Positions 10,974-11,741 of a stretch of 36,413 nt of DNA are shown here, one piece after another. The notes under the pieces were generated by a model. The model made no database searches and was not told the origin of the DNA. It saw only the letters and a program-made list of their open reading frames with translations. The stretch comes from a virus (Duplodnaviria; Heunggongvirae; Uroviricota; Caudoviricetes), in IMG/VR virus record IMGVR_UViG_2724679172_000015. One strand, 5' to 3'. Numbering within the stretch: position 1 is the stretch's first letter; each line of letters begins with the position of its first letter. A program made the translations under genes and the position numbers.

Positions 10974-11741
10974 CTACTCTAAATTACTTACAATAAGTTC
11001 GCGCCGTAGTGTTCCCTTTCCTGCAAGACTGTAGTTGACCTTCACACAGTGAATGTTCAGACCGTTAAAAACCTGCCGCATTTCCGGGATATCGTTGACC
11101 GATATAATCATCTTTCCTCTGATGCTCCGGGCCAGCTCGGACAGCCGCGAGTAGTTCCCTTCAGGAAAATCCACACCATAGCCTTCCGTCCCCAGATACG
11201 GCGGATCACAGTAGAACAGCGTGTGCGGACGGTCATAACGCTTAATGCACTGGTGCCAGTCCATGTGTTCTATCGCCGTTCTGGAAAGCCGCAGGTGTGC
11301 CACTGACAGTTCTTCTTCAATACGTAGCAGGTTGAAGCGTGGCGGGGATGTGGTGGAGGTGCCGAAGCTGTGCTCTGCCACCTTGCCCCCAAACGCCTGC
11401 TTCTGGAGATAGTAGAACCGTGCCGCACGCTGGATATCCGTCAGCGTTTCTTCCGGGGTGATCTGCAGCCATTTGTAGATCTGCCGGCTGACCAGCGCCC
11501 ATTTGAACTGGCGGATAAATTCTTCCAGGTGATGCTTTACCACCCGATACAGGTTCACCAGTTCTCCGTTGATATCGTTAATGACTTCGGTCTTACCAGG
11601 TGTCTTAAGAAAATAGAGCGCAGCTGCGCCGCAGAACGGCTCCACATAACATTCATGCGCCGGAAACAACGGCAGAATGTGTTTGGCCAGACGACGTTTC
11701 CCCCCAATCCAGGGGACTATGGGTAAAGATTGTTCTTTCAT
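10974..11741 (-). CDS. Dam-family N6-adenine DNA methyltransferase (orphan, no cognate endonuclease seen)
   Basis: 255 aa; motif I-like EPFCGAAALYF and catalytic DPPY (YCDPPYLGTEGY) in the alpha-class order typical of Dam/D12 enzymes. Confidence 0.85.
   Translation of the reverse strand: MKEQSLPIVPWIGGKRRLAKHILPLFPAHECYVEPFCGAAALYFLKTPGKTEVINDINGELVNLYRVVKHHLEEFIRQFKWALVSRQIYKWLQITPEETLTDIQRAARFYYLQKQAFGGKVAEHSFGTSTTSPPRFNLLRIEEELSVAHLRLSRTAIEHMDWHQCIKRYDRPHTLFYCDPPYLGTEGYGVDFPEGNYSRLSELARSIRGKMIISVNDIPEMRQVFNGLNIHCVKVNYSLAGKGTLRRELIVSNLE

Follow-up and report, generated by a model that had tools for sequence, protein, structure and literature searches.

What does a transposable prophage gain from a lone DNA methylase gene placed between its immunity and lysis genes, and which sequence does the enzyme read? 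Both questions are raised by a locus in a 36,413-nt stretch of DNA from a virus of the Caudoviricetes (IMG/VR record IMGVR_UViG_2724679172_000015), the whole of which is referred to here as the window. The window corresponds to a transposable, Mu-like prophage of BcepMu type. Its minus strand codes for Mor (E = 1e-43), GemA (E = 1e-40), Gam, a B-like AAA ATPase, a DDE transposase, a DUF3102 protein and an IclR-type HTH protein, and its plus strand for a CI-type repressor, a holin (E = 2e-41) and an SLT transglycosylase followed by morphogenesis genes. The nearest sequenced phage is Escherichia phage PhiKM (Bcepmuvirus), whose methylase is 91% identical to the one studied here.

The methylase ORF occupies 10974..11741 on the minus strand; it starts with ATG and codes for 255 amino acids, the stop codon lying within these coordinates. 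It matches Pfam PF02086 (MethyltransfD12; 3.8e-31, 109.2 bits against a threshold of 22) over residues 11-238, which covers nearly the whole model, as well as phrog_56 (4e-97) and the PADLOC Type II methylase model (2e-110). The solved structures nearest to it by sequence in the PDB are DpnM (2e-17) and then EcoDam (1e-16). A single-sequence AlphaFold model had a mean pLDDT of 34. On the evidence of the ORF, the profiles, the motifs, dN/dS values and homology to ORF48 of phage B3, the product is almost certainly a D12/alpha-class (Dam-family) amino-methyltransferase. A reading made earlier from the sequence alone, which had proposed a 255-aa methyltransferase of the N6-adenine type here, is borne out by the intact ORF, the PF02086 match and a DPPY motif at residues 179-182.

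The motifs follow the order of the alpha class: F36-x-G38, then the motif II aspartate (D56), then the recognition hairpin (residues 117-136), with DPPY C-terminal to it. Motif I, E34-P-F36-C-G38-A-A40-A-L-Y-F44 (EPFCGAAALYF), is present as claimed, albeit one residue shorter than the FxGxAxxxxF given for it, since it reads FxGxAxxxF. G38, D56 and DPPY do not vary among 50 relatives with 36-91% identity, and F36 is at least 90% conserved there. When alignments of 50-96 relatives (down to 36% identity) are considered, the invariant positions comprise G13, K15, H29, E34, G38, D56, R86, A106, E158, D170 and DPPY, and the columns of W11, F36, N55, F117 and Y188 are near-invariant. The motif loss that the earlier reading had held possible on careful alignment is not seen: catalytic and AdoMet motifs are all retained across relatives. 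The gene is under strong purifying selection, with dN/dS of 0.07-0.11 against six orthologues (dS of 0.3-1.6, up to saturation in these comparisons). Judged from its sequence, the ORF most probably encodes a catalytically competent enzyme with N6 of adenine as its target.

The gene is of a known kind and widely annotated. Little is therefore added by describing it as a gene, given its annotation in hundreds of genomes and the REBASE name of its orthologue in E. coli EC958. Among 5426 complete E. coli genomes, 534 (~10%) carry it, always annotated as 'DNA adenine methylase', and protein relatives with 84-93% identity bear the same annotation in Salmonella, Citrobacter, Enterobacter, Klebsiella, Serratia, Yersinia and others. 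Synteny was compared in a sample of 80 species, one locus each. In 24-26 of these loci, all from Enterobacterales, the gene occupies a conserved slot, with the immunity/IclR-HTH genes downstream on the methylase strand and the holin/SLT genes divergent upstream. The genes that adjoin the methylase occur sporadically across loci. Since the GC content of the methylase (52%) matches that of the phage (54%) and its flanks are both low in GC (39-45%) and sporadic, the methylase belongs to the phage backbone and its neighbours are cargo. The term 'orphan', applied to it from sequence, thus holds in that the gene is solitary, but not in the sense of a sporadic acquisition: it belongs to the conserved backbone of BcepMu-like prophages and was already annotated. 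It had also been described as lying on the strand opposite to its neighbours and convergent with the immunity module. Convergence is confirmed, the methylase facing the repressor operon (CI-type repressor, DUF6731 protein, orf153) 3'-end to 3'-end. As for strand, the immediate flanks, orf153 and orf182, are indeed on the plus strand, but orf142 and the entire early operon share the strand of the methylase.

Relative to E. coli genomes, the allele in the window is mosaic. Its flanks are ~97.7% identical to Ecol_448, and the gene itself is 93.6-94.3% identical to copies in E. coli genomes. Its N-terminus, MKEQSLP, is of the type seen in Limnobaculum, Pantoea and Photorhabdus, the E. coli type being MKMQTLP, and the best protein match among 5.8 billion clusters is 93% identical.

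Two published relatives bear on when the gene is used. The first is M.EcoMIV (EC958_1101) of prophage Phi2 in E. coli ST131, an orthologue with 90% nucleotide and 91% amino acid identity that shares the prophage type, the slot after the repressor, the D12 class and the solitary state. The EC958 copy was equated with M.EcoMIV by the published description (a D12 orphan on Phi2) and by position, the RefSeq locus tags being different. Forde et al. (2015, PMC4659465) saw no transcription of M.EcoMIV in the lysogen, could assign it no motif and found no relative of >65% identity with a known site. The window differs from it in carrying a variant allele (its best E. coli match is 94% at the nucleotide level, though the flanks reach ~98%) and extra cargo on both sides of the methylase. 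The second relative is plu3449 of Photorhabdus luminescens TT01, a solitary prophage methylase of 771 nt with D12-type InterPro signatures and a target listed as '?', expressed at <0.001 times the level of gyrB (PMC6092372). In the same Photorhabdus genome GATC was predicted for other phage methylases on the basis of REBASE, whereas no site was given for plu3449 (PMC6092372). It resembles the window methylase in class, size, prophage location and silence, and 256-aa Photorhabdus orthologues were found in our searches; plu3449, equated by description, is probably an orthologue. The comparison of the methylomes of a lysogen and a cured strain, proposed earlier as a check, has in effect been made on these relatives (PMC4659465, PMC6092372), with no motif seen and the gene off. 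Because the orthologues are transcriptionally silent in lysogens, neither such a methylome nor the proposed refutation by lack of a lysogen-specific motif is informative. Strong purifying selection in spite of this silence points to a role outside lysogeny.

What that role may be is suggested by phage B3. Like the window, B3 is a transposable Mu-like phage, and its ORF48 is 63% identical to the methylase over 247 residues (E = 3e-121) and stands where other Mu-like phages have Mom. The two differ in context: in B3 the Com homologue ORF47 precedes ORF48 and overlaps its start, and ORF48 is found among tail genes, whereas the window lacks com and its methylase lies between immunity and lysis genes. 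No Com-like ORF was detected near the gene, and the best tblastn match in the window had an E-value of 0.85 (the queries being B3 Com and an approximate Mu Com sequence). Between Gam and the gene that follows it, the early operon of the window holds a 64-aa CxxC...CxxC ORF (3480-3674, minus strand), a hypothetical protein in the annotation of Ecol_448; it gave no match to Com and no other significant match in Pfam.

The 80 species loci were then scanned for CxxC...CxxC ORFs up to 400 nt upstream of the methylase homologue. In 16 of them a zinc-ribbon ORF of the Com type directly adjoins the start of the homologue (upstream of about position 4001 in L034, L035, L043, L044, L049, L051, L054, L058, L072, L075, L080, L083-L085, L087 and L089). 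The 16 com-linked homologues come mostly from Betaproteobacteria and are 62-75% identical to the query, and RCGxC...KCPRC is present in all cases. PF10122 (Mu-like prophage protein Com) was matched by the two of these ORFs that were submitted and by B3 ORF47. By gene order and motif, these com-methylase operons appear analogous to com-mom of Mu and would extend the arrangement beyond the lone B3 example in the literature. Linkage to com in 16 of 80 loci and in B3 suggests that the family has repeatedly come under translational control of the type that governs Mom, an anti-restriction function expressed late.

A second precedent comes from Hia5, Hin1523 and Nma1821, which are likewise solitary methylases of Mu-like prophages, possess DPPY, are distantly related to Dam and are silent in lysogens. 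They are non-specific adenine methylases and were proposed as substitutes for Mom (Drozdz et al. 2012, PMC3299994), and B3 ORF48 fell outside the 1000 proteins most similar to Hia5 (PMC3299994). The Hia5 type thus differs from the present enzyme in being a different sequence family and in standing at the mom position behind com, and non-specific activity has been shown for the Hia5 type only.

We think it probable that the methylase is an anti-restriction self-methylase of the lytic cycle, kept as a backbone gene of the BcepMu-like prophage. The gene would be off in the lysogen, as the literature on orthologues indicates, and would presumably be expressed after induction. Replicating phage DNA would then be methylated before packaging, and the progeny genomes would be guarded from restriction in the next host. 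This would be the same job as that of Mom in Mu, and as that proposed for the Com-controlled ORF48 of B3. Points against this explanation are that the window lacks com, that the methylase is not at the mom (right-end) position, and that the scans turned up neither a recognisable promoter nor a Mor-type site for it. The sequence-only reading had left two roles side by side, protection of phage DNA and modulation of host gene expression: the analogy with B3 ORF48 and com favours the former, and the silence of orthologues in lysogens speaks against the latter.

A wider proposal, which we put forward tentatively and regard as rather less likely than not to hold in full, is that the clade to which the enzyme belongs (641 clusters at 50% identity, E<=1e-30) could be the main Mom-replacement enzyme of transposable phages and of other temperate ones, with a non-GATC and possibly short or relaxed specificity. 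Such a specificity would explain why the clade is tightly controlled. Control would be exerted by Com in betaproteobacterial and Pseudomonas phages; in enterobacterial BcepMu-like prophages a structured upstream region may mask the ribosome-binding site. A broad specificity, if it exists, would make the enzyme a natural device against restriction and, like Hia5 and M.EcoGII, potentially useful as a tool.

The upstream region in question is a conserved non-coding segment on the minus strand (11742..11845), with 78% mean column identity and long invariant blocks across 16 enterobacterial loci. It holds an SD sequence (AAGG, 10 nt before the ATG), an invariant TATTTT block, a CACAG/CTGTG stem and a perfect 12-bp palindrome, GTCTCGCGAGAC (11789-11800), which is unique in the window. 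Over the same 16 loci, the ~150 nt upstream of the gene (11742-11890) are more conserved than the coding sequence. The upstream RNA has a folding z-score of -4.9, none of 200 shuffled sequences being as stable, and its consensus fold pairs AGCCU with the SD-containing AGGCU, with no covariation. CUGUG has alternative pairings, either in a local stem or beside the ribosome-binding site, and a pairing of CUGUGAGCC with GGCUUACAG is also proposed in 11742-11890. From these features 11742..11845 is presumed to be the promoter/leader of the methylase, and the upstream region may serve as a cis-regulatory element in place of Com. A consensus scan revealed no convincing sigma-70 promoter or terminator upstream of the methylase, no Mor-type site was identified for it, and no Rfam family was matched in 8700-13400. 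An activator site shared with the lysis genes was considered and rejected, as the palindrome GTCTCGCGAGAC is absent upstream of the holin. In Apirhabdus apintestini (locus L040, about 1781-4001) the conserved upstream region lies ~2 kb from a methylase match that is truncated at its 5' end (query residues 23-254), which suggests that an insertion, possibly an IS, disrupted the gene there.

The upstream region is bordered by a GC-rich hairpin, I3 (11846..11873), an inverted repeat with a 9-bp stem, CCAGCCCGG/CCGGGCTGG, followed by GUCGUUCUUUCA on the plus strand. Compensatory changes on both sides were observed at 6 of 10 pairs in the 16 loci, and the plus-strand fold has a free energy of -29.5 kcal/mol (z = -3.95). 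In the minimal architecture, seen in Limnobaculum (L010), the hairpin lies between the upstream regions of methylase and holin, ~100 nt upstream of the holin ATG; EC958 and the window carry inserted cargo genes immediately past it. This element is probably an insulator or a terminator. On the other side of the gene, a perfect inverted repeat, I1 (10917..10948; 14 bp, 4-nt loop, 100% complementary), lies where orf153 and the methylase converge, between their stop codons, and is likely a shared terminator. In EC958, which is without the cargo cassette, the gap between repressor and methylase is filled by a different hairpin followed by a T-run. Silencing of the methylase by antisense read-through from the repressor was rejected because terminator-type hairpins stand between the two genes in both cases.

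The explanation that survives best beside anti-restriction, although we hold it to be unlikely, is a true GATC methylase such as those of P1, T4 and Stx phages, which would duplicate host Dam so that phage DNA is completely methylated at GATC while it replicates rapidly. The RefSeq annotation is 'DNA adenine methylase' throughout, both of the nearest solved relatives, DpnM and EcoDam, act on GATC, and the TIGR00571 'dam' subfamily model of NCBIfam is passed. The pass is marginal, with 115.4 bits where the cut-off lies at 114.85 (~0.5 bit), and NF008152, the equivalog model of E. coli Dam, fails with 70 bits against a cut-off of 441. EcoDam, DpnM and T4 Dam share with the methylase the fold family, the order of motifs, W-x-G-G-K, motif I, the motif II aspartate and DPPY, but identity is only ~25-30% and the base-reading residues are replaced. 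In EcoDam-DNA structures GATC is read by K9, N120, L122, R124 and P134, and Y119 intercalates. None of the five reading residues is conserved, their counterparts being P10, G118, K120, A122 and S129. The HMMER pairwise and MAFFT family alignments agree through A122 (the R124 column), and the equivalence of S129 and P134 hinges on gap placement. Within the family the R124 column varies, and 74 of 96 sequences have K or R at position 120. The intercalating aromatic residue (F117 for Y119) and the phosphate contacts (R135/F136 for R137/Y138) are kept, and the hairpin signature common to EcoDam and DpnM (NGLxRxN...FNVPxGRY) is missing. Given the DpnM and EcoDam relatives, GATC might be read through different contacts, but REBASE offered no site for M.EcoMIV or plu3449 either (PMC4659465, PMC6092372). 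It is thus unlikely, as far as residues can tell, that the enzyme reads GATC as EcoDam, DpnM and T4Dam do, and we infer a non-GATC specificity.

The homology search suggested earlier to place the enzyme in a specificity group therefore led to the D12/Dam family and to no group within it, and the earlier statement that the sequence does not reveal the specificity stands: the GATC contacts are replaced, NF008152 failed and the orthologues are without a REBASE-proposed site. Other leads were followed and given up. GTWWAC, the lead offered by M.BceJIV, was dropped as M.BceJIV is not among the solved-structure matches, and M.EcoGIX, considered as a relative that might give the site, is plasmid-borne. 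The literature on methylases of Ralstonia, Burkholderia, Chania and P2-like phages assigns no site to this family, that on VP882 contained nothing useful for the recognition site, and no biochemically characterised member of the clade was found in the searchable literature. The 'Dam' label thus invites a wrong assumption of GATC specificity, and the family leaves a gap in enterobacterial methylome annotation that concerns ~10% of complete E. coli genomes (including ST131 EC958) and many Salmonella, Citrobacter and Photorhabdus.

Counts of tetranucleotide palindromes held no specificity clue besides a depletion of GATC. The early/transposition operon of the window (1895-7985, minus strand) has no GATC in 6.1 kb, although its own tri- and dinucleotide counts predict 16.7 sites (P about 6e-8), and all other 4-bp palindromes are near expectation there. 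GATC is likewise missing from the corresponding transposase/B/Gam blocks of Ecol_448, EC958 Phi2 and phage PhiKM. This absence could reflect selection against Dam/SeqA/MutH effects or GATC-directed restriction.

It was also considered whether the methylase acts in the lysogen as an epigenetic regulator, methylating host or prophage promoters and thereby altering expression or maintaining lysogeny. The gene does adjoin the immunity region, and prophage methylases needed for lysogeny are reported elsewhere (e.g. gp51 of B. cenocepacia H111), but in two species the orthologues are untranscribed and add no motif in the lysogen, and in relatives the gene is linked to com, which regulates expression late in the lytic cycle. 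We regard such a function as improbable and retain anti-restriction in the lytic cycle as the preferred explanation.

DPPY is overwhelmingly a signature of N6-adenine methylation. M.CbeI (PDB 7M6B), an alpha/D12-class enzyme described as a unique exception, carries DPPY and methylates N4 of cytosine. The family profile matches it with 3e-36, a value between those for DpnM (7e-38) and EcoDam (5e-32), and the recognition hairpin of the methylase (F-G-G-K-V...RF) resembles that of M.CbeI (F-S-G-T-V...RF) more than that of Dam (Y-N-G-L-C-R). In view of this precedent and of the profile match, DPPY does not prove that adenine is the modified base. With single sequences, however, DpnM and EcoDam score 1e-17 to 1e-16 and M.CbeI 5e-11, and this closer similarity to DpnM and Dam makes adenine appear a much likelier base than cytosine. 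An N4-cytosine methyltransferase of the M.CbeI kind is accordingly quite improbable, even more so than a regulator acting in the lysogen, and the anti-restriction enzyme that we favour would be an adenine methylase.

The sequence-only reading had noted the lack of an adjacent restriction endonuclease candidate, and searches of the neighbouring genes in Pfam, NCBIfam, PADLOC and PHROGs gave the same answer: no nuclease or restriction-enzyme family was found. On the plus strand of the repressor operon, the CI-type repressor (9077-9508) is followed by a 297-aa protein (9631-10524), whose homologues carry DUF6731, and by orf153 (10460-10921), which overlaps the DUF6731 gene and codes for a hydrophobic, probably membrane protein of 153 amino acids. 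The 297-aa protein had no match in Pfam at E<=0.01 and none in NCBIfam or among PDB sequences. The pair is also found in lambdoid prophages adjoining Q, where no D12 methylase is present; together with the methylase it occurs in only 1 of the 80 species loci, and EC958 lacks it. As the cassette travels without the methylase and the methylase without the cassette, the methylase is solitary, and its one unassigned neighbour is, on this distribution, independent cargo. The idea that the 297-aa ORF is the endonuclease of a cryptic Type II restriction-modification system, an idea that drew on the frequency of convergent R and M genes and on the lack of database matches for that protein, can hence be dismissed as highly implausible, given also the GC content of the cassette (39-43%) and that of the methylase (52%).

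The DUF6731 cassette, low in GC, set inside the repressor operon and without a PADLOC match, is a candidate for a lysogen-expressed exclusion or defence module. On the other side of the methylase, two cargo genes lie between its upstream hairpin and the holin promoter region (12172-13237). One is orf182 (12172-12720, plus strand; 182 aa), which matches phrog_11791 (5e-63) and has weak matches to SLATT and CBASS-type '2TM effector' proteins (SLATT_4, 2e-6 in NCBIfam, below the cut-off; PADLOC, 4e-5). The other is orf142 (12809-13237, minus strand), a P-loop-like protein of 142 amino acids that matches phrog_3787 (4e-89). Since EC958 and Ecol_448 hold different genes at this spot, it is a cargo hot spot.
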